Positions 2,768 to 48,283 of a DNA stretch of 64,000 nucleotides are shown here, one piece after another. Numbering within the stretch: the stretch's first letter is position 1; each line of letters starts with the position of its first letter. The notes below the pieces were generated by a model. It saw only the letters and a list, made by a program, of their open reading frames with translations. It was not told the DNA's origin and did not search any database. The stretch comes from Gloeobacterales cyanobacterium (lineage in GTDB: Bacteria; Cyanobacteriota; Cyanobacteriia; Gloeobacterales; PMM-0068), in NCBI GenBank assembly GCA_038245785.1, contig JBBRSB010000008.1, positions 1-64,000 of the forward strand, written 5' to 3'. A program made the translations under genes and the position numbers.

Positions 2768-3964
2768 TCAGGAATAAATATCCGCAGGGTCTGCCTCTCG
2801 TAGTTTACGTACGGCAAGAACACCCGCGAGAAAACACATTAATGCTGTTAAGAGAAAGACAACAATAGCTCGGCCAAGTTCCATATAAATAGGTAATCGA
2901 GCAGACTGAGCAATTAAGTTATAAACACCTAGGGAGAGGAAGAATCCTGGGATATATCCCAGAATAGATAATAACAAAGCTTCCTGAAAAACGATTCCCA
3001 GTAAATAGGTATTTGTATAGCCTATGGCTTTCAATGTGGCATATTCTCCAAGATGTGCGGATACATCGCTATAGAGTACTTGGTAAACGATTACAGAGCC
3101 GACGATAAAGCCTAGAAAAGCGCCTAGCGTAAATATATAACCGATAGAGGAGCTGTCTTGCCAGTACTGTTTTTCCAGATTGATGAAATCTTCTAAGGTC
3201 AAAACGGAAACATCACTTGGAAGCCTTGCTGTCAGACTATCACGAACCTGTTGGACGTTCACTCCAGGCTCCAATTTAATTAAACCCAGACTAGGCTTAT
3301 TTAAAGACCGAGATGTAATGCGCCTGAAATTTAATTCGCTGGTCATCAAAAGTCCATCAGCAGAAAAGATTGAACCGCCTAGTCTGAATAGACCGCCGAC
3401 CTTAATTCTTCGATTATTTACCTCAGTAGTAACTCTTTTGCCTTGCTCAAATTCCGCAGAAACAGGCCCAAACTCCGAACGGGATGCTCTGTCAAAGAGC
3501 ACGACATCAGGGATTTTTAATTTATCCAGCTGTTGCGTGACTTCTGGCAAGTCAAAGGCAGGTTTATCGGGCTCGAAACCAAAAACAATAAGTGGACGAC
3601 TACGCCGTGTTTCAGGATTCTTCCAGACTACAAAAGCAGAATAAAGAGGACTTACCGATTCAACTCCTGCAAAAGCTCTGGCTTGTTCAAGACGTCGATT
3701 AGGGATGCCTTGACTAGGATAGTTGATATCAATCAGGTTATTTACTCCAGGATTGACTAAAACAAGGTCTGCTTGAAGATGGCGATGGATCTGCACCGCC
3801 GTATCATACAGAGAATCCCGTAGCCCCAGCTGAACAAATAACAATAAATTAGCAAAAGCGACTCCAGCCAAGGCAATTAGAAGCCGGGATTTTTCGCGGG
3901 TGAGTTGTAACCACGGCAGAGGTATCCCTAGGAAGTTTATCCCCCGAATAAATTTAGGTAGCAA
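2768..3964 (-). CDS. devC: DevC-family ABC exporter permease (FtsX-like)
   Basis: IPLPWLQLTREKSRLLIALAGVAFA N-terminus, VIVYQVLYSDVSAHLGEYATLKAIGY, C-terminal KLREADPADI. Confidence 0.93.
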   Translation of the reverse strand: MLPKFIRGINFLGIPLPWLQLTREKSRLLIALAGVAFANLLLFVQLGLRDSLYDTAVQIHRHLQADLVLVNPGVNNLIDINYPSQGIPNRRLEQARAFAGVESVSPLYSAFVVWKNPETRRSRPLIVFGFEPDKPAFDLPEVTQQLDKLKIPDVVLFDRASRSEFGPVSAEFEQGKRVTTEVNNRRIKVGGLFRLGGSIFSADGLLMTSELNFRRITSRSLNKPSLGLIKLEPGVNVQQVRDSLTARLPSDVSVLTLEDFINLEKQYWQDSSSIGYIFTLGAFLGFIVGSVIVYQVLYSDVSAHLGEYATLKAIGYTNTYLLGIVFQEALLLSILGYIPGFFLSLGVYNLIAQSARLPIYMELGRAIVVFLLTALMCFLAGVLAVRKLREADPADIYS

Positions 3965-5426
3965 TGTTCACCTCTACCTTCAAGTTTGTTAGGTTGGTAA
4001 CCTGCTTGCTATAGGCTGGATCTAGACGAATTTTGACCTCTACGACCCGAGAATCCACATCAGCAACAGGGTCGGCATTGAGGATATCTTTTTTGCGGAT
4101 TTGCTTACCAACCTGAGTAACGGTACCCTTGAATTTCCCGGATAAAGCATCACTGCTAACGTTGGCTCGCTGGCCCACGCGGACACGGTCAATATCACTC
4201 TCATAAACCTCAGCGACCACGTACATCTGGTCGGTCCGTCCGAGATCAGCAATGCCTTGCTGGTCAATAATTTCACCTGGCCGAGCATAGATTTTCAAAA
4301 TCTGGCCGTTCTCTGGTGAGCGTACATTAGTTAATTCCAGATCCGCCTGGGCTTCTTTGACAGCCCCCAGCGCGTCTTTAACCTGAGCTACTGCCAGACG
4401 CACATCCGTAGGGCGGACCTCTGCAACGCTAGATAAAGTAGATCGGGCTTGGTTCAATTGTTCACGCAGGCTATCTACGGCTAGACGCTTACTGTCTGCG
4501 ATGGAGATGGAAATAGCTCCTTCGTCATAGAGCTGTTGGTTGCGCTTATCTTCTGCTTCCGCATTGCGCAACTCGGCCTTTAGACGCCCAATAGTTGCTG
4601 CCTGTGCGCTAATCTCCCCCGATTTTGCTCCCGCTTTGGTCTGTGCTAAGCGAGCGCGAGCGACTTCAACCTGCTCTTTAGCTCTATCTAGTGCCGCCTG
4701 ACGGCGCTCAGCGCTGTCAAGGGTTGCAATAATCTGACCATTACGGACTCTATCTCCCTCTTTAACGAGCAGCTTACTGATGCGCTGCTTTACCTCGACG
4801 GAACTAGGCGAAGACAGACGGATGAGCTCTCCTTCTGGTTCGAGACGGCCTGAGGCTGTCACCGCTTTTGGGTCTGGAGTAAGGGCTACCGGAGGAGAAG
4901 CAGGAGATACTGGACTTTGTACCAAAGAGTTGGCTCCCAGGAGCTTGGAGAATGCCAGAGCACCACTGGTAAGCAGTGCAGCGCTCACAAACACAACCGT
5001 AGATAAGGCCAAGTAACTTGAGAACGTACGAGGCTGTGCGATTCCTCTTTGTTGCTTCAGGGTCTCCTGCTTCAGGGGAGACAGATATACCTCCTCCCCT
5101 TTAACTTTCAGCCGTTCTGAGGTGTCTACTCCTCCAGAAGGAAGAGAAGCGGAGGAAAGAGAAGATATACTTTTCGCGAGCGCGCGTGATTCTAAGAACT
5201 TGGAGCAGGCAATGGCTCCACTGGTGAGCAAGGCCGCGACCATAAACACACTGGCAGACCAGCCTAAATCACCAGGAAAAAGATTGCTCTTCACTTCTAT
5301 CCATTGAGCAGAGGGGAATTGAGCCAATGGCTTGGAAAAGGCAACAGTATGGCTGGTAAGCAGCACAGAAGCCGCAAGCACGCTGACATTCCATCTCAAG
5401 TAGTTTGCTAACAGATGACTTTTCAC
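3954..5426 (-). CDS. devB: DevB-family membrane fusion protein with extended N-terminus
   Basis: AVTASGRLEPEGE, LLVKEGDRV, coiled coil, MYVVAEVYESDI, DVDSRVVEVKIRL. Confidence 0.92.
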   Translation of the reverse strand: MKSHLLANYLRWNVSVLAASVLLTSHTVAFSKPLAQFPSAQWIEVKSNLFPGDLGWSASVFMVAALLTSGAIACSKFLESRALAKSISSLSSASLPSGGVDTSERLKVKGEEVYLSPLKQETLKQQRGIAQPRTFSSYLALSTVVFVSAALLTSGALAFSKLLGANSLVQSPVSPASPPVALTPDPKAVTASGRLEPEGELIRLSSPSSVEVKQRISKLLVKEGDRVRNGQIIATLDSAERRQAALDRAKEQVEVARARLAQTKAGAKSGEISAQAATIGRLKAELRNAEAEDKRNQQLYDEGAISISIADSKRLAVDSLREQLNQARSTLSSVAEVRPTDVRLAVAQVKDALGAVKEAQADLELTNVRSPENGQILKIYARPGEIIDQQGIADLGRTDQMYVVAEVYESDIDRVRVGQRANVSSDALSGKFKGTVTQVGKQIRKKDILNADPVADVDSRVVEVKIRLDPAYSKQVTNLTNLKVEVNIAT

Positions 5427-5455
5427 ATCTGCCTCCTATTTAGATTTAGAGGTAA

Positions 5456-6193
5456 TCAATTTTGTCGGGGCATAAATTCGAACGAACTGGATGGTGATTC
5501 CGTCTCACGTTCCGAGTTCAACAGTCGGCCGTCCTCCATATAAATTGTGCGGTCAGCGACATTTAGAATGCGGTTATCGTGGGTCACTAGCAAGATGGCG
5601 CATCCTTGTTGCTTGGCAAGATGCTGCATAAGCTCTACTACATCCCGTCCCGTTTTCTTGTCGAGGGCTGCAGTGGGCTCATCTGCCAGAATCAATTGCG
5701 GGTTGTTTACTAAGGCGCGGGCAATGGCTACCCGTTGCTTTTGACCCCCGGAGAGATTTTGGGGATAGCAATCCACATATTCTGCCAAGCCGACGGTTTT
5801 GAGCATAGCCTCTGATTTTGAGCAGGCATCCTCAGAGGAAACCTTTTTCTGAAGTTGGACTGACATTTGAACATTCTGCCGGGCTGTCAGAAAAGGGATT
5901 AAGTTATGGCCCTGGAAGATATAGCCGATTTTGCGGCGAATCTGGACTAATTGTCGCTCTTGAGCATCATGAAGCTCATAACCAACAAATTGAAGACGAC
6001 CTTCCTGAACAGAACGCAAACCGCCAATCAAGCTTAAAAGTGTGGTTTTACCTGATCCTGAAGGACCAGCCATAATTACAATTTCACCAGGTTGAATCTC
6101 TAAAGAAATGTCAAAGAGCACCTGTTTACATAATGAGCCTTGTCCAAAGTAGTGGTTGAGTCTTTGAATCGCAACGACAGGCAAATGAGACAT
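5456..6193 (-). CDS. devA: DevA-family ABC transporter ATP-binding protein
   Basis: Walker A GPSGSGKT, LSGGQKQRVAIARAL, ILADEPTAALD, VTHD; LNHYFGQG N-terminus typical of DevA. Confidence 0.93.
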   Translation of the reverse strand: MSHLPVVAIQRLNHYFGQGSLCKQVLFDISLEIQPGEIVIMAGPSGSGKTTLLSLIGGLRSVQEGRLQFVGYELHDAQERQLVQIRRKIGYIFQGHNLIPFLTARQNVQMSVQLQKKVSSEDACSKSEAMLKTVGLAEYVDCYPQNLSGGQKQRVAIARALVNNPQLILADEPTAALDKKTGRDVVELMQHLAKQQGCAILLVTHDNRILNVADRTIYMEDGRLLNSERETESPSSSFEFMPRQN

Positions 6194-6375: not shown

Positions 6376-7542
6376 TTAGGTTAGAACTACATTTTTCTCG
6401 TACTTCTGGAGTTCAGACCCTGGCCTAGCTATTTCCTTTTCAAATAAGCCCAATGAGCGCATAACTGCTTGATCCATGTCGTAATACCTGTAATCTCCTA
6501 ATCGTCCGGCAAACAAAACGGTGCCATTGAGTTTTTCAACTTCTTTGGTGTAAAGATTCAGACGAGCGCGATTCGCTTCATTCAAAATAGGATAGTAGGG
6601 ATCGTTCTTGCCCGGCACATAGGCTTGCGGGTATTCCATCATCAGGGTGGTTTTGGGAGAGCTTTGTCCCGATAAATATTTTTGTTCCGTGATGCGAGTG
6701 ATGTCGTAATCATTGGGATAATTTACCGTCCCCACTTCTTGATACCACTCTTGTTCTACCGTCTCAGACTGAAAGTGAACGCTGCGATAGGGTAACTCAC
6801 CATAGGCATAATCAAAAAAGGCATCGATCGGGCCAGTACAAATCAGCCGATTAAATTTAATATCGTTAATAACTTCTCGATAATTCGTGTTCAGCAACAC
6901 TTTTATATTGGGATGGGCCAGCATCCGTCGAAACATTTCGGTATAACCCAGCCTGGGCATTGCCTGGTATGGATCTTGAAAGTAACGATTATCGCGGCTG
7001 ATATAGACTGGAACTCGCCCTGTGACACCCCGATCCAGTTCTTCTGGTTTCAGATTCCATTGCTTTTGGGTGTAGCGAAGAAAAATATTGTTGTAGATGT
7101 AATCGGCTAGAAATTTCAGGTCGCCACTTGTGTTTTCCCTCAGTTTGAAAATAGGAACCTTGACACCAAAACCAAAATTTTCTAATAACAAGTTTTCGAG
7201 CTTTTCGGCATAGCGGGGAGGAAACAAGTCATAGAGGCTATTGAGATTGAATGGAATGGGAACTTTCTTTCCTTCAATCACACCGAGGACGTGGTGATAG
7301 TAATGTCGCCATTCCGTAAATTGGGAAAGGTGATCCCAGACCTTTTTCGACTTGGTATGAAAGATGTGAGGCCCATACTTGTGCACCAGAATACCGTGCT
7401 CATTGTAATAGTCGTAGCTGTTCCCACCAATGTGGTCACGCTGTTCGACTATTAGTACCCGTTGCCCGAACTGAGTGGCGATGCGTTCCGCTAACACACA
7501 TCCTGAATAGCCTGCCCCGACGATTAACCAATCACATCGCAT
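6376..7542 (-). CDS. glf: UDP-galactopyranose mutase
   Basis: IVGAGYSG FAD motif, HIGGNSYD, HKYGPHIFHT, YFQDPYQAMP, GRLGDYRYYDMD. Confidence 0.96.
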   Translation of the reverse strand: MRCDWLIVGAGYSGCVLAERIATQFGQRVLIVEQRDHIGGNSYDYYNEHGILVHKYGPHIFHTKSKKVWDHLSQFTEWRHYYHHVLGVIEGKKVPIPFNLNSLYDLFPPRYAEKLENLLLENFGFGVKVPIFKLRENTSGDLKFLADYIYNNIFLRYTQKQWNLKPEELDRGVTGRVPVYISRDNRYFQDPYQAMPRLGYTEMFRRMLAHPNIKVLLNTNYREVINDIKFNRLICTGPIDAFFDYAYGELPYRSVHFQSETVEQEWYQEVGTVNYPNDYDITRITEQKYLSGQSSPKTTLMMEYPQAYVPGKNDPYYPILNEANRARLNLYTKEVEKLNGTVLFAGRLGDYRYYDMDQAVMRSLGLFEKEIARPGSELQKYEKNVVLT

Positions 7543-7575
7543 TGTTCATACTCCGAAGATTTATTATGGTGTCGC

Positions 7576-8757
7576 CTATTCAAACGAGTAGGGTTCATGG
7601 ATGGCTTTCAGTGCACCAGTTTCAAGGATGCTTTCTAAGCAACGGACCACTTCAAACACAGCTTGATTTTGATAGGCTTCGACCTTAGCGCGATAACGGG
7701 AAAAGGTTTCCGGTTGGAGCAGTTGGGCCACCGCATGAGACACATCGCGAAAATGCCGAACAACAATGCCTAACTCCTGCTCTTCTAGCCAATCTGCACT
7801 TGCTCGCTCCTGAAACAGGGTCATGACCGGGTGGCACTCCGTGATGACGGGCAACTTCATGGCGATCGCCTCACTAATGCCTACACTACCGGGTTTACCA
7901 ATAAAGAAATCCGCCAGATGCATGTAGTAGGGAATCTGATTTGTAAACCCTTCCACAAAGTAGGGGATGCGACTAGGTCGCTGACGCAAATCTCTGGCTA
8001 AGGCTTTATTACGCCCACAAATGAAGATGAGTTGCAGGTTAAGCGTCGACTGCTCCAGGCGATCGGCAATCTCAATCATTTCCCTGGAGCCGTGACTGCC
8101 AAAAGTAATTAAGCCCGTAGGCAGATTGGGCTGCAGTCCCAACCGTTGGCGTTCTTGCTGGCGAACCACTGGATCGGCAGTTCTAGAATTCAGCATCACA
8201 GGCTGATTAAACTGGGGATGGATCACTACACCTGAGGTCTGAAACAGCTTCTCATCGGGAAACCCAACCGCTTTTGCCTGCTGGATGGCACGCTGGGAAG
8301 GACAGATCAGAAATTGCTCTTGGGGCTCAATCCAGAAATGGGTCGGACAATCGGCAAAATCAGTGATGGAGGTGACAAAAGGGGTTGCGGGACATTCCAG
8401 CCGCAGGCTTTCGCAAAGGGCTCGGTTTACATGGGGGAGCAAAGAAACGACCAAATCGGGCTGATGCTCACGCCAGTATTTTCTAAGACGGTTTCGCCAG
8501 GCAAAATGATGCAAGCGAATTTGCAGCTTAAACAAAGGAACTGATATGGGATCGTTAATAAGTCTTGCCCACTTTTTCTTAAGAACCAAATTGTTATAAA
8601 AATCCTGAGAAAAACTCGTTCCAAAGATTTCTTTAAAAACCTCGATCACTTCGACTTGCCATGGCAAATTCTGATGCTCAATAACCTTTTGTAAAGCATT
8701 TGCGGTGCTACGATGACCTCCGCCCATGTCAAAAATCGCAAAATATACTCTTTTCAT
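7576..8757 (-). CDS. Glycosyltransferase, MGDG-synthase/UgtP-like (GT28)
   Basis: N-terminal MGGGHRS, PDLVVS, ITDF, FIGKPG..ISEA motifs. Confidence 0.88.
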   Translation of the reverse strand: MKRVYFAIFDMGGGHRSTANALQKVIEHQNLPWQVEVIEVFKEIFGTSFSQDFYNNLVLKKKWARLINDPISVPLFKLQIRLHHFAWRNRLRKYWREHQPDLVVSLLPHVNRALCESLRLECPATPFVTSITDFADCPTHFWIEPQEQFLICPSQRAIQQAKAVGFPDEKLFQTSGVVIHPQFNQPVMLNSRTADPVVRQQERQRLGLQPNLPTGLITFGSHGSREMIEIADRLEQSTLNLQLIFICGRNKALARDLRQRPSRIPYFVEGFTNQIPYYMHLADFFIGKPGSVGISEAIAMKLPVITECHPVMTLFQERASADWLEEQELGIVVRHFRDVSHAVAQLLQPETFSRYRAKVEAYQNQAVFEVVRCLESILETGALKAIHEPYSFE

Positions 8758-9612
8758 TTAATTAGTTTTCCTATAAATAGTTACTTTTGCCTTCGCCTCC
8801 ATCTGATTCTCTATTCGCATTTGATTTAGATTGGTTATGCCCATCCACCGATAAACCGTATCTCCAAAGCGTGGGAAAATTTGTTCGATCGCAAATAACA
8901 GTTTGGTAAGAACTTCTGTTGCAGGATCCTGATTGACAATTACTTCGGCTTGATTCTTTTCGATTGCCGCGATCGTTGCTTTGGCTGTCTTTTCTAGCGT
9001 AGACGTACCCGATAATTTTGGTATTGGCACGCCAGTATCGGCAGTCATTCCTTGTCCAGAGATATATCCCGGACAGACTAATGAGATTTTCACGCTAGTA
9101 CCAGCCAATTCTTGCCGAAGTGCATCCGACCACATAATCAAGCCAGCTTTACTGGCTGAATAGATGCTGTTATAAGGCGCTCCCTTTTTACCAGCCAGAG
9201 AGGCAATATTAACGATATGACCGCACCTACGGAGCAGTAGCAAACGAGTTAACTCCATTGCAGCCAGTAAATTCGTGTTCAACACCGACTGAATTTCGGA
9301 GGTGGAATAATTTTGGAAACTTTTGTAGATTTCTATACCCGCATTATTAATTAAGATGTCAATCGAACCTGCTCGCTGCTCGATCTGTAAAATTAGGGCT
9401 GGCAATTCTTCCACTCGACTCATGTCACAGGGAATGCCTATCCACTTACCCCCTAATGCTTGGACTGCATCGGCTACCTGCTCCAGGCTATCTTGAGAGC
9501 GAGAAACACCAACAATAGTCGCCCTTTTTCTCGCCAGAGCAAGAGCCAAAAAGGCTCCTAGGCCGCGCGAAGCACCTGTCACAAGTACTGTCTTCCCTGC
9601 AATGGTTGTCAT
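8758..9612 (-). CDS. hetN: HetN-like short-chain dehydrogenase/ketoacyl reductase
   Basis: TGASRGLG, NNAG, YSASK catalytic motif; MTTIAGKTVLVTG N-terminus. ERGSGR-type signal is not conserved (LRRCGH at that position). Confidence 0.82.
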   Translation of the reverse strand: MTTIAGKTVLVTGASRGLGAFLALALARKRATIVGVSRSQDSLEQVADAVQALGGKWIGIPCDMSRVEELPALILQIEQRAGSIDILINNAGIEIYKSFQNYSTSEIQSVLNTNLLAAMELTRLLLLRRCGHIVNIASLAGKKGAPYNSIYSASKAGLIMWSDALRQELAGTSVKISLVCPGYISGQGMTADTGVPIPKLSGTSTLEKTAKATIAAIEKNQAEVIVNQDPATEVLTKLLFAIEQIFPRFGDTVYRWMGITNLNQMRIENQMEAKAKVTIYRKTN

Positions 9613-9670: not shown

Positions 9671-11533
9671 TCAATTAGTCTGGAAAGGAGCCATGCTTTC
9701 CCTTAACGAAGGGAAATGCTTTCCACCTAGTTCGATTTGTTCGCGATCGATTCCAGCTTTAACTCTTTCTAATAAATAATCCATATCGTGAGCAATGATA
9801 TTAGTTCCGTGGTCTGGCTCGATCAAACCTGCTAAAGCAATATCGCTACCATGGCAAGCGACCAAATTTTGTATGCCTAAGAAGTTGAATACACCGGATT
9901 CATAAGTTCCACAGGGAACTGAAGGATTATGAACCCCAGCATAATATTCATTTGGACCAAACCATTCTGAGGCTGGATAACCATGGAAATGGACCATTGA
10001 TAAGCCGTTCTGAATAAGTGCTGGTGCATATAAAGATGAGGCTAAAGCAATAGCAAGCATCACGTAAAGATCATAAGACGGCTTAATATCCAAGGCTTTT
10101 GGATTCACATCTTTAGGTAGCTGTAATAATAATCTGGCATCACTGCTAAGACCTATTCTGAGAATGTCTTGCTCAAGGTTTAAGTCTGTCTTGTTCGAAC
10201 CTGAGCGAGAGCTGACGAGCCAAAGGTCTGGAATCTGTTTGAAAACATAGTTTTTTCTTACCTCAGTCTTTATATATTTTCTGTTCATCTCATTTTGGCG
10301 AACTTCATCCAGATGAAATCCCTCTACGGGCAGGAGATTCTCCCACTCAGATTCGCTGATCTCAGGTGCACCAATGTATTGAGGAGGCTCTGCATAGGCG
10401 ACGAAACCATAGGAAACTCCTGTTCTTCCGTTCACAATGACATTAACAATATCCCTGTGCGATTTCCTAGGGATCACTTCGCTGAGTTTTGCTCCTGGAG
10501 GGAATAATCCTGTATCAGCAAGCTTATGGCCTAAGGTAACTAGTTTTCCCGAGTAGTCAGACTTTTGAGGATCATACTGTTCTATTTCAAATCGATTCAT
10601 TGGTATTGGGATGATCGGAACATAAATTTTGGGGATAAGCGAATTCAATACAAATTTGTCAATCTCATCTACAGCATAGATAGAATCTGATAGGTTCATA
10701 TTTAGGATTGAGATATCCTTGCTAGATACTCCAATCACAAGTTCTGAAAATGTCCTAACCAAGGTATTCAAACCAACTTTTATCTTTTGTTGATAGGGCA
10801 GTTTAGGATCTGTGAATTTACTATCTAAGGATGTAAGGATAATTACTTGTGTGTTAGTAGGGTCTTCAATGTATTTGGCTGCATGATCTTCCGCCCAACT
10901 GCTCAATGCCGCAATTCTAAGCACAGACATTGTCCGACTTTTCGAGGAAAGGTCAGAATATAGCTTGTAGAAACTTTCTGCAGCAACAATTCCCAGCTTC
11001 CTCCATAGAGAAGGATGCCTTTCCACATCAATAACTGCATTAATTGATGATTTAACTACCTTCGTTTTGATTTTCATCTTCCATTTGAAAATAGCCACTT
11101 CATAATTGAGTTCAGTCAGTGTTTCATCCCATGGTTCAATGGTGACCCCATAATCCTTGAGTTTTAGAATCAGCTGTTCTCTAAACTGAAGAACCTCGTC
11201 ATTCTTATAGCTATCGGGCAGTGGTCTGATGGCAACTGCTAGCTTCTGTGCCATTGCCTTAGGATCAATAATCGGTTTTTTGCAGGATTGTCCAGTAGAA
11301 CCACCGATTAAACGTCCAATTGTTTGCAAGCTTAATCCTCCCTCTGTGGGGATAGGTTCTGTAGTTTCTTCCTCACGCAGGAACGTAATAATTTCTGTCT
11401 TATGTTCATTCAGCTCATTACGCAACTCCTGTGTTAAGACTCCCTTCGGAGAACGAACGTTCAACTTGTCTCCGTCAGCCCATAATTGAATGTTTTGACG
11501 ATCAAGATTTTTCAAAAGCTCAGCTATATTCAT
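9671..11533 (-). CDS. TubC-type beta-hairpin docking domain fused to an uncharacterised region with a C-terminal class II aldolase/adducin-like domain
   Basis: N-terminal IQLWADGDKLNVRSPKGVLTQELRNELNEHKTEII matches TubC_N. C-terminal SRSGSNK, KPSYD, VHFHG, PCGT and EPDHG occur in class II aldolase order. Confidence 0.7.
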   Translation of the reverse strand: MNIAELLKNLDRQNIQLWADGDKLNVRSPKGVLTQELRNELNEHKTEIITFLREEETTEPIPTEGGLSLQTIGRLIGGSTGQSCKKPIIDPKAMAQKLAVAIRPLPDSYKNDEVLQFREQLILKLKDYGVTIEPWDETLTELNYEVAIFKWKMKIKTKVVKSSINAVIDVERHPSLWRKLGIVAAESFYKLYSDLSSKSRTMSVLRIAALSSWAEDHAAKYIEDPTNTQVIILTSLDSKFTDPKLPYQQKIKVGLNTLVRTFSELVIGVSSKDISILNMNLSDSIYAVDEIDKFVLNSLIPKIYVPIIPIPMNRFEIEQYDPQKSDYSGKLVTLGHKLADTGLFPPGAKLSEVIPRKSHRDIVNVIVNGRTGVSYGFVAYAEPPQYIGAPEISESEWENLLPVEGFHLDEVRQNEMNRKYIKTEVRKNYVFKQIPDLWLVSSRSGSNKTDLNLEQDILRIGLSSDARLLLQLPKDVNPKALDIKPSYDLYVMLAIALASSLYAPALIQNGLSMVHFHGYPASEWFGPNEYYAGVHNPSVPCGTYESGVFNFLGIQNLVACHGSDIALAGLIEPDHGTNIIAHDMDYLLERVKAGIDREQIELGGKHFPSLRESMAPFQTN

Positions 11534-11545
11534 TAGTTAACCCTC

Positions 11546-11836
11546 TCAAAGTTCAATAGTTTCTGATTGAGCAGTCTCAGCTTCTTCTTCTAAACGTTGG
11601 GAGAGACTCTCAATGGTTGGGTAATACATCAGCAAAACTGGGGACAACTTAAAACCTAATAAATTTTCCAGTTTGCCTGCTATAACTAGAGCCTGAGCTG
11701 AATTTAAACCATAGCTATCGAAAGGTTCTCGCATATCAATATCATCTGGTTTGACGCCCATTTGTTGGGCTAATTCATTGACTAACCACGTCTGAATAGC
11801 TGCAGATGTCCATGCTTTAGAGTTGAAGGAATTCAT
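11546..11836 (-). CDS. Stand-alone acyl carrier protein with acidic C-terminal tail
   Basis: IQTWLV, PFDSYGLNS (Ppant Ser), YPTIESL; tail EEEAETAQSETIEL. Confidence 0.9.
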   Translation of the reverse strand: MNSFNSKAWTSAAIQTWLVNELAQQMGVKPDDIDMREPFDSYGLNSAQALVIAGKLENLLGFKLSPVLLMYYPTIESLSQRLEEEAETAQSETIEL

Positions 11837-11871: not shown

Positions 11872-13542
11872 TCAAGACAAAGGGGTAGGATGATACTGGT
11901 TGAAGTGTGCTGGCATATGTAAGCCCTGCATCTTTAGGCCGTATATCCGATGTAGATAAGTTGCTCCCGTCATCAGATGGTGAGCTATGTCTACTACCTT
12001 GCGATTATCTGGAGCATCTAGATAGGAACCTCTTACCCAATCGTTGAAGGCTCCCATCGCAGGTCCACACCAAATTTGATAATCAATCTCTCGGCCTTTT
12101 TCTCCGGAATTTGACCAGCGCGAAGCTAGTCCCAGATACCAGCGGAAAATCAGGGCCATCTTCAGCTTGGGGTTATTCCTGGCTTTGGCTATTTTCTCAG
12201 GGTTCCGCCTGGATAAATAGTTCACCGTATCTTCCCAAACCGAGTCCAGGTTTCTGCGGAAAATCTGTTTTTCCACTTGCTCCCGTTCCTGAGCTGGAAT
12301 ACTTTCAATCGATTCATAGTTCCGATAAAGCTCAAATAGCTTCTGCGCTCTCATCGGAAACATAGTTCCGCGTTTGAGAACCTGCAGCCGAACTCCCATT
12401 TCAAACATATCGGCAGCCGGGGCCATCATCACATCAGACACTTCAGCTTGGGCCAACAGCGCCTTGGTATGGAGGGAAGAGCCTGCTTCAATGCACGACT
12501 GGTTAACAGAACCCGTCATCACATAGGCTGCCCCCATCATGAAAGCGGCGAGAGCGGATTGTGGCGTTCCAATGCCTCCCGCCACACCAACCCGGACTGG
12601 CCTGTCGTAGCCATACTGTTCCTGTATCTCATCTCTTAAAGCGAGGATTGAAGGCAGAAGGCATACGAGCGGTCGGTTGTCTGTATGCCCCCCTGAATCC
12701 GCCTCTACCGTGATGTCATCAGCTACAGGAATTTTTGCAGCCAGAGCGGCCTGTACTTCTGTAATCAACCCCTGCTCAACCAAGAGCTTGAGCATTGAAG
12801 GTGGAGCAGGCTGGAGAAATTTCGCTGCCACTTCACGCCGGGAAATCTTGGCAATAACCCTATTTTTAATCTCGATCTGATTGCTTGGATTGAGACTGAG
12901 CCCGGACGCACGGTAGTAAACAATATTAGGAGTCATGTCTAGAAAAGCCGAAGCTTCCACCGTGCGCACCCCATGCTGAAGGTACATGTCTACAGCCTTA
13001 CGTTCTATGGCAGGTTCACTAGGGCTATGCAAGAGATTGAACGCATAGGGTCCTTCGGGAAGCGCTTGTTGAATGCGGTGGATAGCCTCTTCAACACGAG
13101 ATGGACTCAAGCCCCCAGCCCCAAAAGAACTTAGTATTTTTGCCTTACCTAGTGCAATAACTAATTCCTCGGATGCAATTCCATTAGCCATCGCACCAGC
13201 TGCATAAGCACTGTTGACCCCATAGGTGCTTAGGAAATCAGGCGCTCCTAGTTGCTGAATCGACAGAGGCGGCACGGCCACGAGCAATTCCATCGGCATC
13301 GTTTTGCTTTCATCATAGGGATAGCCCCCATGAGTTACGCCAATCCGGGAGCCAGTCCGAATTACATAGCAGGGCTTATCTGGGGTCAAAAGCTTAGCCT
13401 TGATACCGAGCGCATCAAAAGATACATCTTCGAGGCGTCCCTGCCAGAAAGGATAATGAGCAGGTGAGTGGCCAGAAAATTGTAGATAACTACCGCTTCC
13501 CTTGGAGATAGTTTCCACTGGTTGAATATCTGTACTAAGCAT
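11872..13542 (-). CDS. pfaD: PfaD/HglA-family enoyl reductase
   Basis: GAMANGIAS, EADSGGHTDNRP, MAPAADMFEMG, DYQIWCGPAMGAFN. Confidence 0.95.
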   Translation of the reverse strand: MLSTDIQPVETISKGSGSYLQFSGHSPAHYPFWQGRLEDVSFDALGIKAKLLTPDKPCYVIRTGSRIGVTHGGYPYDESKTMPMELLVAVPPLSIQQLGAPDFLSTYGVNSAYAAGAMANGIASEELVIALGKAKILSSFGAGGLSPSRVEEAIHRIQQALPEGPYAFNLLHSPSEPAIERKAVDMYLQHGVRTVEASAFLDMTPNIVYYRASGLSLNPSNQIEIKNRVIAKISRREVAAKFLQPAPPSMLKLLVEQGLITEVQAALAAKIPVADDITVEADSGGHTDNRPLVCLLPSILALRDEIQEQYGYDRPVRVGVAGGIGTPQSALAAFMMGAAYVMTGSVNQSCIEAGSSLHTKALLAQAEVSDVMMAPAADMFEMGVRLQVLKRGTMFPMRAQKLFELYRNYESIESIPAQEREQVEKQIFRRNLDSVWEDTVNYLSRRNPEKIAKARNNPKLKMALIFRWYLGLASRWSNSGEKGREIDYQIWCGPAMGAFNDWVRGSYLDAPDNRKVVDIAHHLMTGATYLHRIYGLKMQGLHMPAHFNQYHPTPLS

Positions 13543-13674: not shown

Positions 13675-16647
13675 TTACGAATTCTTTTCATGTGCCATCT
13701 CATTAAGCATCTGCTGTGCTAGATTCACCTGAAGTTGAATAATTTCTGCCATCTGCTCCAAAGATTCCTGCCGTGTTTCTAGAAAGGCTTTGTGTGCTTT
13801 GGCTATCTGGTTAGAAGATTCACTGAGTTGCTCACGTATAAGACTTTTTGTTCCTGCTAAAGCATTAAGGGCTTCCTGATCGCATTTGCCTAAGGTCATC
13901 TTCTCAACAAAAGAGGGCCTTTCGCTAGGGTTCTGCTGAACCCCATATAGGGGAGAAAGATCCACGGGAACTCGATGACTAAGAAGCTGTGCTAAAGCTT
14001 TGACGATGGAGGTAAAGTCATCAGTTCCTCTTCGATTCAACGATATGGTTATATGCTCTTTTTGACCTAAAATCTCATCGATCCATCTAGAACAGATGCT
14101 TCCTGCCCCTGCTTCAATGAATATTCTGCTGCCATCGTCATAGACTCGGTTCACTAACCGAGGAAAATCTAAGGGTTGGCAAAGCCCTTTTGCAACATGG
14201 TGACTAACTAATTCAGCATCTAGGTCAATCGGTTGATAGTCGACAGCAGAATAAATAGTTGTCTTTGAAATATTTTGGATCGGTAAAGTATTGAGCTTGA
14301 CGAGTTCATCGTATTCAGATCGCATCGCTTCACAGTGGATTGCATGGTTCAAAGGAGCACGAAAAGCATCACAATTTAGTGTTTTAATCACCCTCTGACA
14401 AGCTTCTGGATCGCCTGCAATAACTGCTTCCTTAGGAGTATTAATCTGAGTCAAATAAACACGGTTTTCATGCTTCAAGCAGTTCATAATCTCGGAAGCT
14501 GAAGCCATAAGAACGTACGTACTCCAGATTTCTTCATTCTCCTGCCTATTATGATTTTGAGGTAATTTCCAGTACTCACGCACTGCGTCTTTAGGACCAG
14601 ATAAACGCGTTTTGAACAAAGCAGATGAATTCAAAGCATCACTTCGTTCACTGAAGTTAGCCCAGACGCCCTGGGCGCACAACATACTAGTTTCACCTAA
14701 GCTATATCCAAAGGCAGATTGTGGCTGGATTTGAAAGTAGTCTTTCATAACAAGGGTAATGACAGTAGCGAAACCCATTTCGACTTCGAGCATGGAAAGA
14801 ATATTATCCACCAGCTCTTTTTCAATCTTTTCTAGTTGCCTCACAGATAACTTGTTTAAGCTTCGTGGATAGATAAGTTTATCTATTTTCGCAATGCAGT
14901 CACTTGTATTTTTGATTACTGGGTCATCCCAAATTTTTGGAAAGAGCCGAAAAATATCCCGGCCTAACCCTACATAGGAACCAAAAGCCCCAGGATAAGC
15001 GTAAGCAACAGTACCTTTTTTAGCAAGCGGATTGGCTGTAAAGTAGCTGCCTAGAGGAGTTTTCCAGTCATCTCCTTGCTCGAAGGCCCGTGTAATACCC
15101 TGAAACGCACGTTGACATTCCTTAGATAATTCATCTTTACGGCGTCCTAGAATGACCAGTGCGTAAGTTTCTTGAGAATGTTCTTGAAATGCCGTAAAAG
15201 TTTGACTGGCAGCATCAGATAAAGAAGAACAATCCTCAATAACCTGTTGAAGCTGATGAACCTGTTCTAATAGCCCCAAGCGGTCTACAGCAGCAACTGG
15301 AAATAGATGAAAGGGCATTTGCTCAAGGTAGCTGTTTCGACTAAGAGATCTGTCTATAGAAGATTCACTAAGTTTTGGGGCCTCTGACATAACTAAATGA
15401 GCACAGGTGCCATCTCTTCCCAAACTATTAATAGCAGCCAATCTGATATAGCTGCCTGTTTCTAAACACCAGGGTCTCGATTCAGATGCAATATAAAAAG
15501 GGCTATCTTGCGAGATGTGCACTTTAGGACCAGACCACTGAGGTACGGCAGGGATATAACGATGATAGATACAAAGAGCAGTCTTGATTAAACTAGCCAT
15601 TCCTGAGGCCGTATAAGTGTGACCAATGTTAGCTTTCACACTACCTAAAGCACAGTTAAGACCTGCCTTAGAAGACTGGTAACCTCGAGTTAAACCTTCA
15701 ATTTCTGCATCATCTTCTTGCTGAATTCCGCTCCCATAAACTTCAACATAGCTAATATCGTCTGGTTGTACCTTCGCAACCTTAAAAGCTTGCTGACAAG
15801 CTTGGGCTATCAATTTAGCTGAAGGTAATTCAGAGTAGTTCTCTCGTTTTTCTAATGGCTGTATAAGACTGATAGCCTCAATCACGGCATAGACTGGATT
15901 ACTATCTTTTTGTGCAGCTTTATGATGTTTTAAGACAACCGCCCCAGCTCCCTCACCGATCATCCATCCATTTGCATTGCGGTCATAACCAAGTGTAGCG
16001 ACACCCGTATTTATTTTCGCTGACTGGTTGCGTGATAAAACATCTTCCACTCCACCGGCCAAATCAACCACAGCTACTAAAACGGCATCAACTTCTCCAG
16101 TAGCTAAGAGCATTTGAGCATTTTCCAGAGCCTCAAAGGTAAAATTATCTCCGGCAGCGAGTGTGAAGGTAGGACCCATGAAATTCCATAGCGCAGAGAT
16201 GCGACTAGCGATGATGTTGTCGATATAGCTCGGATATTCCCTAGTTTCAGCTGCGGAAACAATAACTGCTACATTGGCCCCTTTCTGAATGCCTGCATCT
16301 CCCAAAGCGCCTTCAGCGACTTTGAGCAGCAAAAGTTGTTGAGAGTTGAGTTTATCGACTGTGCTATGAGGTACCTTGAAATGCAACGGATTAAATTCAA
16401 AGTTCTCTATGTAAGCGCCTCGAGGAACTTGATCATTTTCGAAGCCATGATCTTTGAGCAGTTGCACTTGATGATTGACTCCTTCCCACCGCTGGGTAGG
16501 CGGGGAAACAAAATGCTGCGTACCCTCATAGATACTGCGCTCAAAAGCATCTAATCCCTGGCATGAACCGAAAGCAGCATCCATACCCACAATTGCTATT
16601 TTTGGGAGTTGAACGGTTATATTGGGCTCTATTTCTACTCTTTTCAT
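13675..16647 (-). CDS. hglC: HglC/PfaB-like chain-length factor (non-catalytic KS) plus acyltransferase
   Basis: KIAIVGMD start, GEGAGAVVLK, GSVKANIGHT; no DxACxS Cys; AT motif GYSLGE, DFPRLV, FIEAG. Confidence 0.85.
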   Translation of the reverse strand: MKRVEIEPNITVQLPKIAIVGMDAAFGSCQGLDAFERSIYEGTQHFVSPPTQRWEGVNHQVQLLKDHGFENDQVPRGAYIENFEFNPLHFKVPHSTVDKLNSQQLLLLKVAEGALGDAGIQKGANVAVIVSAAETREYPSYIDNIIASRISALWNFMGPTFTLAAGDNFTFEALENAQMLLATGEVDAVLVAVVDLAGGVEDVLSRNQSAKINTGVATLGYDRNANGWMIGEGAGAVVLKHHKAAQKDSNPVYAVIEAISLIQPLEKRENYSELPSAKLIAQACQQAFKVAKVQPDDISYVEVYGSGIQQEDDAEIEGLTRGYQSSKAGLNCALGSVKANIGHTYTASGMASLIKTALCIYHRYIPAVPQWSGPKVHISQDSPFYIASESRPWCLETGSYIRLAAINSLGRDGTCAHLVMSEAPKLSESSIDRSLSRNSYLEQMPFHLFPVAAVDRLGLLEQVHQLQQVIEDCSSLSDAASQTFTAFQEHSQETYALVILGRRKDELSKECQRAFQGITRAFEQGDDWKTPLGSYFTANPLAKKGTVAYAYPGAFGSYVGLGRDIFRLFPKIWDDPVIKNTSDCIAKIDKLIYPRSLNKLSVRQLEKIEKELVDNILSMLEVEMGFATVITLVMKDYFQIQPQSAFGYSLGETSMLCAQGVWANFSERSDALNSSALFKTRLSGPKDAVREYWKLPQNHNRQENEEIWSTYVLMASASEIMNCLKHENRVYLTQINTPKEAVIAGDPEACQRVIKTLNCDAFRAPLNHAIHCEAMRSEYDELVKLNTLPIQNISKTTIYSAVDYQPIDLDAELVSHHVAKGLCQPLDFPRLVNRVYDDGSRIFIEAGAGSICSRWIDEILGQKEHITISLNRRGTDDFTSIVKALAQLLSHRVPVDLSPLYGVQQNPSERPSFVEKMTLGKCDQEALNALAGTKSLIREQLSESSNQIAKAHKAFLETRQESLEQMAEIIQLQVNLAQQMLNEMAHEKNS

Positions 16648-16681: not shown

Positions 16682-18406
16682 TTATCTGGGCAACTTTAGA
16701 GAAAAGATAGTAGTCTTTGCCCCTAGAAAGCGTGAGTAAACTTTTCCATGGAGATCATGGGAGGTAATGTCAGTAATCAAGCTGGTTTCCGTTTTAGATT
16801 TAACTTCTGCAGAAACATAAAAAGTTTCATCACATGGAATATCTGCAAAATGCTCAAACTTTTCTAATAATGCTGGCAAACAAATTTCTTTGTGGAAATG
16901 GCATAACCAAATCCAAACACTATGGAACTGCAAGTCAATAACATAAGGGTTAATCGTCTGTATAGGAAACTGCCCTTGCTTTTTTTCTTCCACCCCCTTC
17001 CATTTCAATCGGGTAGTAATTCTTTCAGGAGTAATATTTATAACATTTTCCACAGCCTGAAAAGCAGGCCCATGGAACAGGCTTAGTTCTCCATCTTGAT
17101 AACAGGGCCTATCGAAGTTGGAAATTGCAGGATCTATTGTTAAATCAAAAGAATCATGGATAGGAGCACTCAGAATATCTCGCAGCAACTTTAGCTGACA
17201 AGAGTAATGATAGTGTATTTTCCCAGCGTTACTTCTACTCCATACTTTTGCTTCAAACTCTATTTCGCTAGAATTTTTTGCAATTTCTTTGATATCTAGA
17301 ACATATTCATTTGCTAAACTTTCATTAAAAATGATACCCTTTAAAATTCTAAAGTTTATACAACTGAAAAATTTATAGCCAGGGTAAAGTTGTTCACAGG
17401 CATTGGCAATCCACGATATTGCACAGGTGGCTGGAAGAACTGGATTACCAGCAATCACATGATCTTGCAAAAAAGGATTTGCTTCTAAAGTCAATCTACG
17501 ACGGATGGAGTGAGTTTCTAGCTGTGGATTCAACTTGCTAACAGGTATAAAAACTGGACTACCAATCACTACCTGCGCTGTTTTCTGGTTAACTATGTTT
17601 AATTCGTCAACCATCATTTGTGCACCAACTTCAATCGGAATAATTTCGATATTTCGTTGGGCAAAAGCGTTCTTCAATTCTGGAGAGACCATACCACTAT
17701 CCCAAGGACCCCAATTTATAGCAACCACATGGCAAGAGGGATTATGCTGTTTGACGAGATGAGCTGACTTATTAAGAATTTCGTTAGCCATTGCATAATC
17801 AGTCTGGCCGATATTCCCAAAAAAACCAGATACAGAGGAAAATAGGACTAAGTAGTCAAGTTGACTCACGGGTATGCAAGATAGTAAGTTCTCTAAGCCC
17901 TTTACTTTTGCTGTATAAACAGTTTCAAAATCCTCTTCAGTTTTCTTTTCAATTAACTTATCTGCTAAATTTCCAGCTCCGTGAATAATGCCAGTAATAG
18001 GTCCCATTCGACTAATAGTAGCTTCCAGCTTTTGCTGTAAGGCCGAGATATCTGTTATATCCACATCGATATATTCTGCTTGCCCTCCAGCTCTTTCAAT
18101 AGCTCGTAGCGTATTTTTAATTTCTCGACTAGATATAATAGAGCGAAATACTTTCTGCACCGCCATGGGCGAAGGCTTCCCTCCTTTCGCTAAGAGGTCT
18201 TCCATGATCAACTTTTTGAGCTGAGATTCATCAGAGTAATTCTTAGCCCAATCAGGTTCATTGTCCAAAATGGATGAACGGCCTAATAATACAAATGTGC
18301 ATGGCTGATGCTGCACTAGTCTGGTCACGCACTTGCCCGTAATACCTTTAGCTCCACCACTAACAAGAAAAACTGATGACGGACTAATCTGAGTTGCTGA
18401 TGCCAT
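16682..18406 (-). CDS. HglG-like ketoreductase-dehydratase (KR-DH)
   Basis: GGAKGIT, IHGAG, DYAMAN, INWGPW (KR); NPFLQDHVIAGNPVLPA and LFHGPAFQ (DH). ATG at 18406 preferred over TTG at 18418. Confidence 0.88.
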   Translation of the reverse strand: MASATQISPSSVFLVSGGAKGITGKCVTRLVQHQPCTFVLLGRSSILDNEPDWAKNYSDESQLKKLIMEDLLAKGGKPSPMAVQKVFRSIISSREIKNTLRAIERAGGQAEYIDVDITDISALQQKLEATISRMGPITGIIHGAGNLADKLIEKKTEEDFETVYTAKVKGLENLLSCIPVSQLDYLVLFSSVSGFFGNIGQTDYAMANEILNKSAHLVKQHNPSCHVVAINWGPWDSGMVSPELKNAFAQRNIEIIPIEVGAQMMVDELNIVNQKTAQVVIGSPVFIPVSKLNPQLETHSIRRRLTLEANPFLQDHVIAGNPVLPATCAISWIANACEQLYPGYKFFSCINFRILKGIIFNESLANEYVLDIKEIAKNSSEIEFEAKVWSRSNAGKIHYHYSCQLKLLRDILSAPIHDSFDLTIDPAISNFDRPCYQDGELSLFHGPAFQAVENVINITPERITTRLKWKGVEEKKQGQFPIQTINPYVIDLQFHSVWIWLCHFHKEICLPALLEKFEHFADIPCDETFYVSAEVKSKTETSLITDITSHDLHGKVYSRFLGAKTTIFSLKLPR

Positions 18407-18484
18407 AAACGCTCTCAATTGGATAACTTATTAAAGTTGTTTAATTGGTCCTACTGTATTCGTTGGATATGAAACTCTTTGGGT

Positions 18485-40529: not shown

Positions 40530-40544
40530 AGCGTTGTCCGTCTA

Positions 40545-41621: not shown

Positions 41622-41647
41622 CGAATCTCCCCACACAGGTTAGTTAT

Positions 41648-48274: not shown

Positions 48275-48283
48275 GTTGTCAAC

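Follow-up and report, generated by a model that had tools for sequence, protein, structure and literature searches.

Gene cluster organization

The window analysed here comprises positions 1–64,000 of contig JBBRSB010000008.1 in assembly GCA_038245785.1, which derives from a Gloeobacterales cyanobacterium. Open reading frames (ORFs) and matches to Pfam and NCBIfam profiles delineate a single gene cluster on the reverse strand between bases 1944 and 23884. The cluster encodes a lipid synthase of the Pfa/Hgl type, a free acyl carrier protein of 96 amino acids (ACP96) and a three-domain protein of 620 amino acids (X620). X620 represents a real, well-conserved and uncharacterised enzyme family, and we consider it probable that the protein acts in release of the acyl chain.

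The synthase is composed of an HglE/PfaA-like protein with ketosynthase (KS), acyltransferase (AT) and ACP domains, a ketoreductase-dehydratase (KR-DH) protein, a KS/chain-length factor (CLF)-AT protein and a PfaD-type enoyl reductase that is equivalent to HglA. ACP96 and X620 follow, and a HetN-like classical short-chain dehydrogenase/reductase (SDR) lies directly downstream of X620. The remainder of the cluster encodes a glycosyltransferase of family GT28, a UDP-galactopyranose mutase, an exporter of the DevBCA/Hgd type and a HetI-like phosphopantetheinyl transferase (PPTase). Coordinates are listed in Table 1. A preliminary description of this DNA had placed a 620-residue protein 12 bp behind a free ACP; the ORFs confirm this arrangement, with a gap of 12 bases at 11534–11545. 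The assembly is 98% complete and contains one copy each of PfaD and X620. HetR_C was not found in this genome, but is present in all three Nostocales controls, and the host is probably a non-heterocystous cyanobacterium.

Structural analysis of X620

The structure of X620 was modelled with AlphaFold2 using alignment A1 (67 sequences, down to 21% identity) as input. The resulting model, with a predicted local distance difference test score (pLDDT) of 92.8 and a predicted template modelling score (pTM) of 0.91, was used for structure searches with Foldseek and, against representatives, with VIA-align. The model shows three parts: a β-hairpin docking domain, a Rossmann-like middle domain and a domain with the class II aldolase fold.

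The TubC-type docking domain that had been proposed for the N-terminus of X620 is borne out by both sequence and model. Residues 3–54 match TubC_N (PF18563) with an E value of 1.4e-21 and 76.8 bits, against a cut-off of 26. AerJ (8aqq) is detected by sequence (E 2.7e-10) and superimposes on the modelled domain with a Z score of 9.2 and a root-mean-square deviation (rmsd) of 1.3 over 56 of 58 residues. EpoB (5t7z) was retrieved by structure search with a Z score of 7.9, and Bamb_5915 (6cgo), which is 32% identical, aligns with residues 1–57 (Z 8.2, rmsd 1.1). In the model, helices at residues 3–12, 35–43 and 45–55 surround a hairpin formed by strands 16–20 and 23–27. By sequence and predicted fold, the domain is an ordinary member of its family. 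A phmmer search of X620 against the PDB returned docking domains only, and no further Pfam or NCBIfam family matched the protein at E 0.01, consistent with the claim that X620 lacks condensation, adenylation, thioesterase and reductase domains.

The middle domain (residues 88–309) most closely resembles the C-terminal (phosphopantothenoylcysteine synthetase) domains of CoaBC, with Z scores of 9.7–8.7. CheY-like folds reach Z scores of about 7, which is only about 2 below the CoaBC matches, and there is no sequence match. N280 and K302 are the only residues of this domain that are conserved in alignments A1 and A2, the latter of which consists of 42 docking-less relatives. The middle domain lacks a glycine-rich motif and has almost no conserved residues, and we therefore rejected X620 as an NAD(P)H reductase. 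A search of the ESM Atlas for look-alikes of residues 60–620 gave no usable match.

The preliminary description had guessed a class II aldolase-like fold from sequence motifs, and the structure searches agree. The C-terminal domain (residues 321–617) is most similar to L-rhamnulose-1-phosphate aldolase (RhuA; 1gt7), with a Z score of 14.2 and an rmsd of 3.4 over 191 aligned residues. Other matches include FucA (2opi, Z 13.6), YgbL (Z 13.0), APIP (Z 12.0), AraD, decarboxylases (2z7b, Z 11.9; a pyridine-dicarboxylate decarboxylase is listed), pyruvic oxime dioxygenase (POD; 8il8, Z 11.6) and TqaM (9m0a, Z 10.5). All proteins ranked 1–15 by VIA-align, which span Z scores of 14.2–10.5, belong to the class II aldolase superfamily; Foldseek gave an E value of 2.5e-4 and a probability of 1.00 for the top 15 matches listed.

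Five motifs noted previously are present in this domain: SRSGSNK (442–448), KPSYD (484–488), VHFHG (514–518), PCGT (540–543) and EPDHG (572–576). These motifs do not reflect chance, since they are near-invariant in A1 down to 21% identity. In A1, the residues S444, G445, K448, P485, S486, D488, H515, H517, G518, C541, E572, P573, H575 and G576 either do not vary or show conservation of at least 90%; in A2, their equivalents are all invariant. Besides these 14 residues, R370, G372, S374, G376 and D456 are conserved in both alignments. Comparison with 20 cyanobacterial ORFs of the Aldolase_II family revealed the same motif order and spacing; the equivalence of individual residues rests on motif order and secondary structure rather than on a residue-level structural alignment. 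SGSNK would correspond to PSGVDKG in the Aldolase_II ORFs, KPSYD to RPSSE or KASAE, VHFHG to VHCHS or LHTHS, and EPDHG to AHHG or AGHG. The putative metal ligands of the HxH motif are separated from the third histidine by 60 residues in X620 and by 52–76 residues in 17 of the 20 Aldolase_II ORFs; the spacings in the other three (41, 91 and 67) look like mis-picked motifs.

POD and TqaM, which we take to be iron enzymes, share the putative three-histidine site of X620, which raises the question of whether X620 is an O2-dependent non-haem iron enzyme that binds Fe(II) at this site and oxidises the ACP-bound chain. However, both proteins score below the sugar-phosphate aldolases, a phosphate-type loop is conserved in X620, and no partner gene points to oxidative chemistry. 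We regard an iron enzyme of this kind as quite improbable.

Table 1 Features of the ACP96–X620 gene cluster (window positions) and of comparison loci
Feature	Position	Strand	Basis
HglE/PfaA-like KS-AT-ACP(n) synthase	18485..23884	-	TIGR02813, 1792.8 bits
KR-DH protein	16682..18418	-	Pfam matches
KS/CLF-AT protein	13675..16647	-	Pfam and NCBIfam matches
PfaD-type enoyl reductase (HglA equivalent)	11872..13542	-	TIGR02814, 682.4 bits; single copy in genome
ACP96, free 96-aa ACP	11546..11836	-	PP-binding, E 7.2e-14
14-residue acidic C-terminal tail of ACP96, EEEAETAQSETIEL, candidate short linear docking motif	11549..11590	-	Translation and conservation
X620, 620-aa three-domain protein	9671..11533	-	Single copy in genome
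X620 residues 1-56, β-hairpin docking domain (TubC_N)	11366..11533	-	PF18563; AerJ 8aqq
X620 residues ~88-310, Rossmann-like middle domain	10604..11272	-	Structure search and conservation
X620 residues 321-617, class II aldolase/adducin-fold domain, presumed catalytic	9683..10573	-	Structure search
S444-G445-S-N-K448 loop, resembling the PSGxxKG phosphate loop of Aldolase_II	10190..10204	-	Conservation and motif comparison
P485-S486-Y-D488, resembling the (P/A)S(S/A)E acid/base motif of Aldolase_II	10070..10081	-	Conservation and motif comparison
H515-F-H517-G518, putative first two metal ligands	9980..9991	-	Conserved; end of strand 510-516
C541, invariant Cys, candidate acyl-accepting nucleophile (inferred)	9911..9913	-	At least 90% in A1, invariant in A2
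E572-P-D-H575-G576, putative third metal ligand, strand-HG-strand hairpin	9806..9820	-	Conservation and predicted secondary structure
HetN-like classical SDR, directly downstream of X620	8758..9612	-	adh_short, E 8.8e-50
GT28/monogalactosyldiacylglycerol synthase-like glycosyltransferase	7576..8757	-	PF06925 and PF04101
UDP-galactopyranose mutase	6376..7542	-	PF03275, E 2.4e-71
DevBCA/Hgd-type exporter	2768..6193	-	ABC ATPase 5456-6193, HlyD 3954-5426, FtsX permease 2768-3964 (Pfam)
HetI-like PPTase	1944..2765	-	PF01648, E 1.4e-22
Tandem HglB, tailed ACP and X620	L206 10403-14215; L207 10338-14135		
ACP, X622, SDR and PPTase of the extended island of Cylindrospermum sp. NIES-4074	L201 2418-6531		

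The acidic tail of ACP96

Translation of bases 11546–11836 (reverse strand) shows that ACP96 ends in ...RLEEEAETAQSETIEL. The pattern ...RLAEELExSxSE[IV][FIL][QE][IL] occurs at the corresponding position in all 49 ACPs found beside X620 homologues. Of 45 Nostocales loci, 44 have an ACP gene next to X620, and the remaining one begins at a contig end; the same adjacency holds in each of the 17 genomes that encode X620 but no HglB orthologue. Domains of the TubC_N type bind a short motif of fewer than 15 residues at the C-terminus of a carrier protein (PMC9113145, in part), and the 14-residue tail of ACP96 is a candidate motif of this description. Complex prediction for the docking domain (residues 1–62) and the ACP returned a score of 0.20 against a mark of 0.32 and was used neither way. 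The β-hairpin docking domain of X620 probably binds this conserved acidic tail.

Position of ACP96 and X620 relative to HglB

HglB/HetM of Anabaena sp. PCC 7120 (alr5357, 506 amino acids) consists of an ACP and a thioester reductase and is essential for the glycolipids (PMC11804610, Supplementary Table 4). Two HetR-bearing genomes, G224 and G187 (loci L203 and L204), contain the canonical gene order PfaD, HglB, SDR. Their HglB ORFs of 512 and 505 amino acids combine PP-binding with NAD_binding_4 at 237–243 bits, and a PPTase follows in G224. ACP96 is 52–55% identical to residues ~6–92 of these ORFs, their ACP part, and is paralogous to this N-terminal domain of HglB. The window SDR, in turn, shares 57–59% identity with the SDRs located behind HglB in L203 and behind X622, the X620 homologue in L201; the value for the G224 SDR is 59%. 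The similarity of the ACP and of the SDR places ACP96 and X620 in the position of HglB, and the earlier statement that the pair stands where HglB should be, between PfaD and a HetN-like SDR, was accurate.

An HglB-type reductase is missing from the window genome. The best match to PF07993 in this genome scores 38.6 bits, compared with 237–250 bits in real HglB proteins, and an HglB query returned nothing at 1e-40. A PapA-like acyltransferase was likewise not found in the window genome with a single query.

We determined the co-occurrence of X620 and HglB in a sample of 401 Cyanobacteriia genomes, counting as HglB orthologues only full-length matches of at least 59% identity in ORFs of ~500 amino acids. 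X620 was found in 31 genomes and HglB in 20; 14 genomes contained both. In 12 of these 14, the two genes are far apart or on different contigs. In the remaining two (G088 and G329; loci L206 and L207), they stand in tandem, in the order PfaD, HglB, ACP, X620, and the ACPs carry the tails ...EESEDSDSEFLEI and ...EELAESNLEVFEI. Thus, the mutual exclusion that had been suggested does not hold: 14 of 31 X620 genomes also have an HglB orthologue, and the two genes co-occur at the genome level and, twice, at the level of a single island. X620 is therefore not a simple substitute for HglB. The 17 genomes with X620 but without an HglB orthologue include two, G010 and G237, that have shorter reductase-like ORFs of lower identity. 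Downstream of the tandem arrangements in L206 and L207 are glycosyltransferases of the GT2/GT21 type and, in L206, a sulfotransferase.

Four types of island can be distinguished. Type (a) has the order PfaD-HglB-SDR, and type (b) the order PfaD-HglB-ACP-X620. Type (c), PfaD-ACP-X620-SDR, is represented by the window and by the extended island of Cylindrospermum sp. NIES-4074. In type (d), found in Nostocales loci, PfaD, a PapA5-like acyltransferase, an ACP and X620 occur together. Of 45 Nostocales loci, 43 contain the PapA-like gene, 44 the ACP and 42 PfaD; the misses are located at contig ends. Heterocytous cyanobacteria, including Raphidiopsis brookii D9, contain compact and conserved "hgl-like islands" to which no product has been assigned (PMC11804610, main text). 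The 45 Nostocales loci, which encode KR-DH, KS/CLF-AT, PfaD, ACP and X620, match these islands, and X620 is their most conserved gene without a homologue in PCC 7120.

Cylindrospermum sp. NIES-4074 (G061; L201 and L205) is a HetR-bearing strain with two PfaD islands, one extended and the other compact and hgl-like. Each contains a copy of X620, and the copy in the extended island is 61% identical. The extended island encodes HlyD/FtsX, HglE, KR-DH, KS, KS/CLF-AT, PfaD, ACP, X622, a HetN-like SDR and a HetI-like PPTase; it lacks HglB, and no strong PF07993 match lies near either island. Locus L199, which harbours the fourth-best PF07993 match of this strain, does not belong to an hgl island and was discarded as an HglB locus. 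No terminal module adjoins the second PfaD locus of G152 (L202).

Relatives of X620

A word-indexed search yielded 685 matches at E ≤0.001 among 8000 candidates scored. The 120 matches listed are all at least 59% identical to X620, and all contain the docking domain. They originate from Nostocales, Pleurocapsa, Hydrococcus, Myxosarcina, Lyngbya, Symploca and Chroococcidiopsidaceae and are annotated as "hypothetical", "TubC N-terminal docking domain-related" or, wrongly, "non-ribosomal peptide synthase". An exhaustive profile-free search with residues 61–620 recovered only 130 cluster representatives, of which 35 reached E ≤1e-30. When 34 of these were compared with Pfam, 29 had no family and 3 had the docking domain only; the other two were an unrelated Ig/PKD protein and P0136. 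This metagenome protein of 837 amino acids joins the docking domain and the X620 core to a C-terminal thioesterase (PF00975, E 1.6e-37).

Relatives without a docking domain were found at 80 metagenome loci (L086–L165). They are ~540 amino acids in length and 33–46% identical to P0149, the A2 query. In 49 loci the sequence extends far enough downstream, and in 42 of them a HisKA_7TM histidine kinase follows within ~60 bases; the two genes form a conserved enzyme-sensor pair. A PlsC-type acyltransferase is encoded within 7 kb of 29 of the 80 relatives and is directly adjacent in 15 of the 59 loci with upstream sequence. SDRs (10/80) and fatty-acid ligases (5/80) are additional neighbours. These relatives sit among housekeeping genes such as those for tRNA synthetases, DnaJ and Hsp70.

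Conservation in these distant proteins bears on the notion that X620 is a non-catalytic adaptor, which merely brings the tailed ACP to a PapA-like acyltransferase, HglB or a glycosyltransferase. Other release-type enzymes are indeed frequent neighbours of X620, as such an adaptor would predict. However, 14 polar residues that look catalytic do not vary even at 21% identity, nor in relatives that lack both the docking domain and an ACP neighbour, which makes an adaptor role highly improbable.

X620 in modular polyketide synthase contexts

The genomic context of X620 was examined in all 17 genomes that lack HglB (the window, L200 and L208–L222). Seven contexts are of the Pfa type and seven contain a modular type I polyketide synthase (PKS); a PapA-like gene is adjacent only in G152. 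The tailed ACP of the modular contexts constitutes the final domain of a module, or directly follows the module in L213 and L218. According to Pfam, the terminal modules consist of a KS, a degenerate AT or none, and an ACP; they contain no KR, and no GHSxG was found. In five of the seven (L209, L211, L212, L214 and L216), the terminal KS reads EVQGTGT, EVQGTST or EVNGTGS at the position where elongating KSs of the same loci have E(A/L)HGTGT, whereas the last KS of L213 and L218 keeps its histidine. Loss of this decarboxylation histidine is, we presume, the signature of a non-decarboxylating, transfer-only ketosynthase. The preceding module has the composition KS-AT-DH-ER-KR-ACP (ER, enoyl reductase) in L209, L212 and L214 and KS-AT-KR-ACP in L211; that of L216 is cut by the contig end. 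Given the preceding module and the non-elongating KS, the substrate presented to X620 would be a saturated acyl thioester in L209, L212 and L214 and a β-hydroxy acyl thioester in L211.

The preliminary description had envisioned cleavage or formation of C–C bonds in the chain. In such chemistry, a β-hydroxy or β-keto acyl-ACP would undergo retro-aldol cleavage, decarboxylation or dehydration on the carrier, yielding, for example, an aldehyde or methyl ketone that is reduced by the SDR before glycosylation. This possibility is compatible with the fold, whose members include aldolases, decarboxylases (YgbL and 2z7b) and dehydratases (APIP), and with the SDR that stands behind X620 in seven contexts. 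Moreover, the chain on the terminal ACP of Pfa/Hgl-type islands may be in a different state at the β-carbon, and the last KS in L213 and L218 keeps its histidine. The saturated thioester in L209, L212 and L214, however, offers nothing to cleave or decarboxylate. The substrates of the modular contexts argue against decarboxylation, retro-Claisen and, in general, retro-aldol chemistry and fit acyl transfer better, and we consider C–C chemistry on the carrier improbable. The docking domain, the aldolase fold and the HglB slot of the earlier interpretation stand, while exclusion of HglB and C–C chemistry are not supported. Taken together, the Pfa-type and modular contexts suggest that the tailed ACP and X620 make up a portable chain-release module that serves both Pfa/Hgl-type synthases and modular type I PKSs.

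A model for X620-mediated chain release

It is tempting to speculate on the reaction that X620 catalyzes. In our model, the finished acyl chain would be parked on ACP96, whose acidic tail would recruit X620 in trans through the N-terminal docking domain. X620 would then remove the chain from the carrier. Its metal may hold a small phosphorylated ketol, the prime candidate for which is dihydroxyacetone phosphate (DHAP), and the acyl group would be passed from the ACP thioester to this acceptor, possibly via an acyl-Cys541 intermediate. Subsequently, the adjacent SDR would reduce the acceptor-derived ketone, and the polyol so formed would receive a sugar from the GT28 enzyme, with UDP-galactofuranose supplied by the mutase. 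Export of the glycolipid would fall to the DevBCA-type pump. Retention in X620 of metal, acid and phosphate-loop motifs together with an invariant cysteine suggests a small phosphorylated ketol or ketose as the acceptor. We favour docked release coupled to acyl transfer onto such a ketol only tentatively, at somewhat less than even confidence; DHAP as the specific acceptor is, taken by itself, unlikely.

The genes that accompany X620 lend indirect support to such an acceptor. A classical SDR is encoded directly behind X620 in the window, L201, L209, L213, L214, L218 and L221, and an extended SDR in L212, L216 and seven Nostoc loci. In L209, L212 and L214, the fully reducing module that feeds the tailed ACP would leave a chain end without a carbonyl for the SDR to act on. 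Homologues of the window GT28 (40–62% identity) adjoin X620 in L210, L213 and L218, and copies of the UDP-galactopyranose mutase that are 77% identical occur in the X620 clusters of L213 and L218. This family of glycosyltransferases normally glycosylates diacylglycerol. An acyl-DHAP route, comprising transfer, ketoreduction and either a second acylation or dephosphorylation and glycosylation, would account for these partner genes and for the PlsC-type acyltransferases, SDRs and fatty-acid ligases beside the docking-less relatives.

The trio of SDR, GT28 and mutase genes recurs beside ACP and X620 in the window (6376–8757), L213 (1929–8071) and L218 (509–8064). In the latter two loci, which belong to two genomes of another family, the trio lies behind a different, modular PKS. 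Its recurrence suggests a shared galactofuranose-bearing head group. The window GT28 was also considered as hglT and rejected, because no homologue was found in five genomes, three of them HetR-bearing.

Like GT28, further enzymes found near X620 in other loci have hydroxyl or phosphate groups as targets, which fits an acceptor that contributes a ketone, a hydroxyl and a phosphate. A PapA5-like O-acyltransferase lies nearby in 43 of the 45 Nostocales loci and in L200, and a sulfotransferase in L206, L216 and L221. L209 and L214 encode a HAD phosphatase, an enzyme of the UbiA family and a methyltransferase. This set is located behind X620 and the SDR (L209 11570–14119; L214 5335–8036), is followed by a large β-propeller/RTX protein, and could lead to a head group of the pentose or ether type. 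In L210 (12950–18955), ACP, X620 and GT28 are followed by an ACP, a KS-AT-ACP-thioesterase protein, a type III PKS and an ICMT-like methyltransferase; this locus resembles an alkylresorcinol-type cluster fused to a lipid island.

A simpler possibility is that X620 is a metal-dependent thioesterase. Docked X620 would hydrolyse the thioester, and the free (hydroxy) fatty acid would then be esterified or glycosylated by other enzymes. Hydrolysis follows the same logic of a release module, requires only a metal-activated water, which is simple chemistry for an HxH...H site, and would supply the window cluster with its only release enzyme in a genome without HglB. However, it leaves unexplained the invariant Ser-Gly-x-x-Lys and Pro-Ser-x-Asp motifs as well as the reductase that so often directly follows X620, even behind a fully reducing module, and it would render the thioesterase domain of P0136 redundant. 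For these reasons, a thioesterase appears rather unlikely.

Several observations weigh against acyl transfer to a phosphorylated ketol. We know of no class II aldolase-fold enzyme that carries out acyl transfer. X620 does not match PF00596 at E 0.01, and the family profile built from A1 found 0 matches in the PDB. In local mode, hhalign against the 20 cyanobacterial Aldolase_II ORFs gave a weak match spanning 37 columns (E 0.089). As no sequence profile ties X620 to Aldolase_II, equivalence of their phosphate loops is inferred. Among the Nostocales islands, 20 of 45 end at X620; pipX and housekeeping genes come next, and neither a reductase nor a phosphatase lies downstream. The window cluster also lacks a phosphatase. 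Other release-type enzymes often accompany X620, namely the PapA-like proteins, HglB in tandem in two genomes and the thioesterase of P0136, so that X620 may act in modification of the chain instead of its release. The HAD/UbiA pair of L209 and L214 can be read as phosphoribosyl transfer followed by dephosphorylation. Finally, ordinary diol glycolipids, should NIES-4074 produce them, would not be accounted for by transfer of an acyl group to a ketol.

The weak local hhalign match places WLVSSRSGSNKTDL...DILRIGL of X620 on the aldolase phosphate loop, and global mode gave no meaningful alignment. The PF00596 profile had 0 matches in the whole window genome. We also considered a lactyl starter unit derived from DHAP and rejected it by reasoning: an acetyl starter already explains the even chain lengths and the ω-1 oxygenation.

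In its strongest form, our model holds that X620 founds a new enzyme class: a carrier-docked acyltransferase built on a class II aldolase scaffold that places completed PKS or fatty-acid chains on metal-bound DHAP and so initiates a bacterial acyl-DHAP route, with the SDR as acyl-DHAP reductase. We regard this extension as doubtful. If true, the products of the hgl-like islands and of the window would be very-long-chain glycolipids of the acyl-glycerol type rather than fatty-diol glycosides, and the docking-less relatives beside PlsC-type acyltransferases would catalyse an initial step in the phospholipid synthesis of uncultured bacteria that has so far gone unrecognised.

Other features of the window

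The gene for acetyl-CoA carboxylase subunit AccA (24408–25490, reverse strand) is directly upstream of the cluster. An α/β hydrolase of 266 amino acids is encoded on the forward strand at 26280–27080, 2.4 kb past the start of the HglE-like gene; an α/β hydrolase also adjoins the PPTase in L201. Genes for hydrogen and pyruvate redox metabolism, including hypD, occupy 39447–52713. Among them are a pyruvate:ferredoxin oxidoreductase of 1213 amino acids (42640–46281) and bidirectional hydrogenase genes resembling hoxE/F/U/Y/H (46620–52713); the same region contains unrelated genes for a phosphofructokinase, a member of the DHO_dh family and a TPR protein. Within 59012–62000, the G+C content falls to 0.36 and the GC skew becomes strongly negative at 60001–62000. 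This segment encodes a KAP-family P-loop NTPase (59012–60940) and a 248-residue ORF without a family, adjoins a gene resembling Uma2 endonucleases (62213–62776) and may be a foreign or defence islet.

Comparison with known systems

Enacyloxin synthesis offers a close parallel. Its chain is released by Bamb_5917, a tailed peptidyl carrier protein, and Bamb_5915, which joins a docking domain to a condensation domain (PMC13324335, in part). In both systems, a tailed carrier, stand-alone or terminal, is paired with an independent off-loading enzyme whose N-terminus is a β-hairpin docking domain. In five of the seven modular X620 contexts, a KS without the decarboxylation histidine precedes the tailed carrier; in the enacyloxin system, a non-elongating ketosynthase reportedly makes the first transfer. 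The two systems differ in their catalyst, which is a condensation domain in one case and an aldolase fold accompanied by a Rossmann-like domain, with no match to Condensation, in the other. They also differ in the carrier: X620 is served by an ACP that belongs to a Pfa/Hgl-type lipid synthase, and in the window this ACP is free and located behind an iterative Pfa-type synthase. By analogy, the X620 system may work like enacyloxin-type release with a different catalyst.

HglB/HetM and the ACP96–X620 pair share an island slot and a homologous ACP. Unlike HglB, for which four ORFs contain the NAD_binding_4 reductase at 237–250 bits, neither ACP96 nor X620 has this domain. The ACP that serves X620 is free and carries a docking tail, and both systems can stand in tandem. 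Some island variants thus replace or supplement the HglB reductase, which bears on how the head group is attached to the lipid. Islands of the heterocyst-glycolipid type are used both as biomarkers and to model how cell differentiation evolved.

RhuA, FucA, AraD, MtnB/APIP and YgbL share with X620 their fold (Z 14.2–12.0 over 160–191 residues) and motif order. In contrast to these class II aldolases, the X620 domain comprises ~300 residues with insertions, is fused to two other domains and is not matched by PF00596. Its acid position is occupied by Asp rather than Glu, and it contains an invariant cysteine. The aldolases function in sugar-phosphate metabolism, whereas X620 is part of a lipid pathway that depends on a carrier protein.

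The window island differs from the hgl-like islands of PMC11804610, as presented in its main text, by the addition of an SDR, GT28, UDP-galactopyranose mutase, exporter and PPTase, and by its location in a genome without HetR_C. According to its main text, that survey searched only for homologues of PCC 7120 genes. X620 is not mentioned in the main text or in one supplementary file of PMC11804610, whose SI Appendix may bear on this point. Full-text searches on heterocyst glycolipids and docking domains, and on class II aldolases with polyketides, ACPs or chain release, found no description of the X620 family. New here are the fold of X620, its candidate catalytic residues, its ACP partner and its placement at the chain-release step. 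The release chemistry is possibly new and has probably not yet been described.

Enzymes listed behind β-hairpin docking domains comprise condensation, epimerization, cyclization, thioesterase and methyltransferase domains, thioester reductases and halogenases (PMC9113145, in part). The aldolase fold is absent from this list in the part of PMC9113145 considered here, and X620 would add a new catalytic fold of potential use in PKS engineering.

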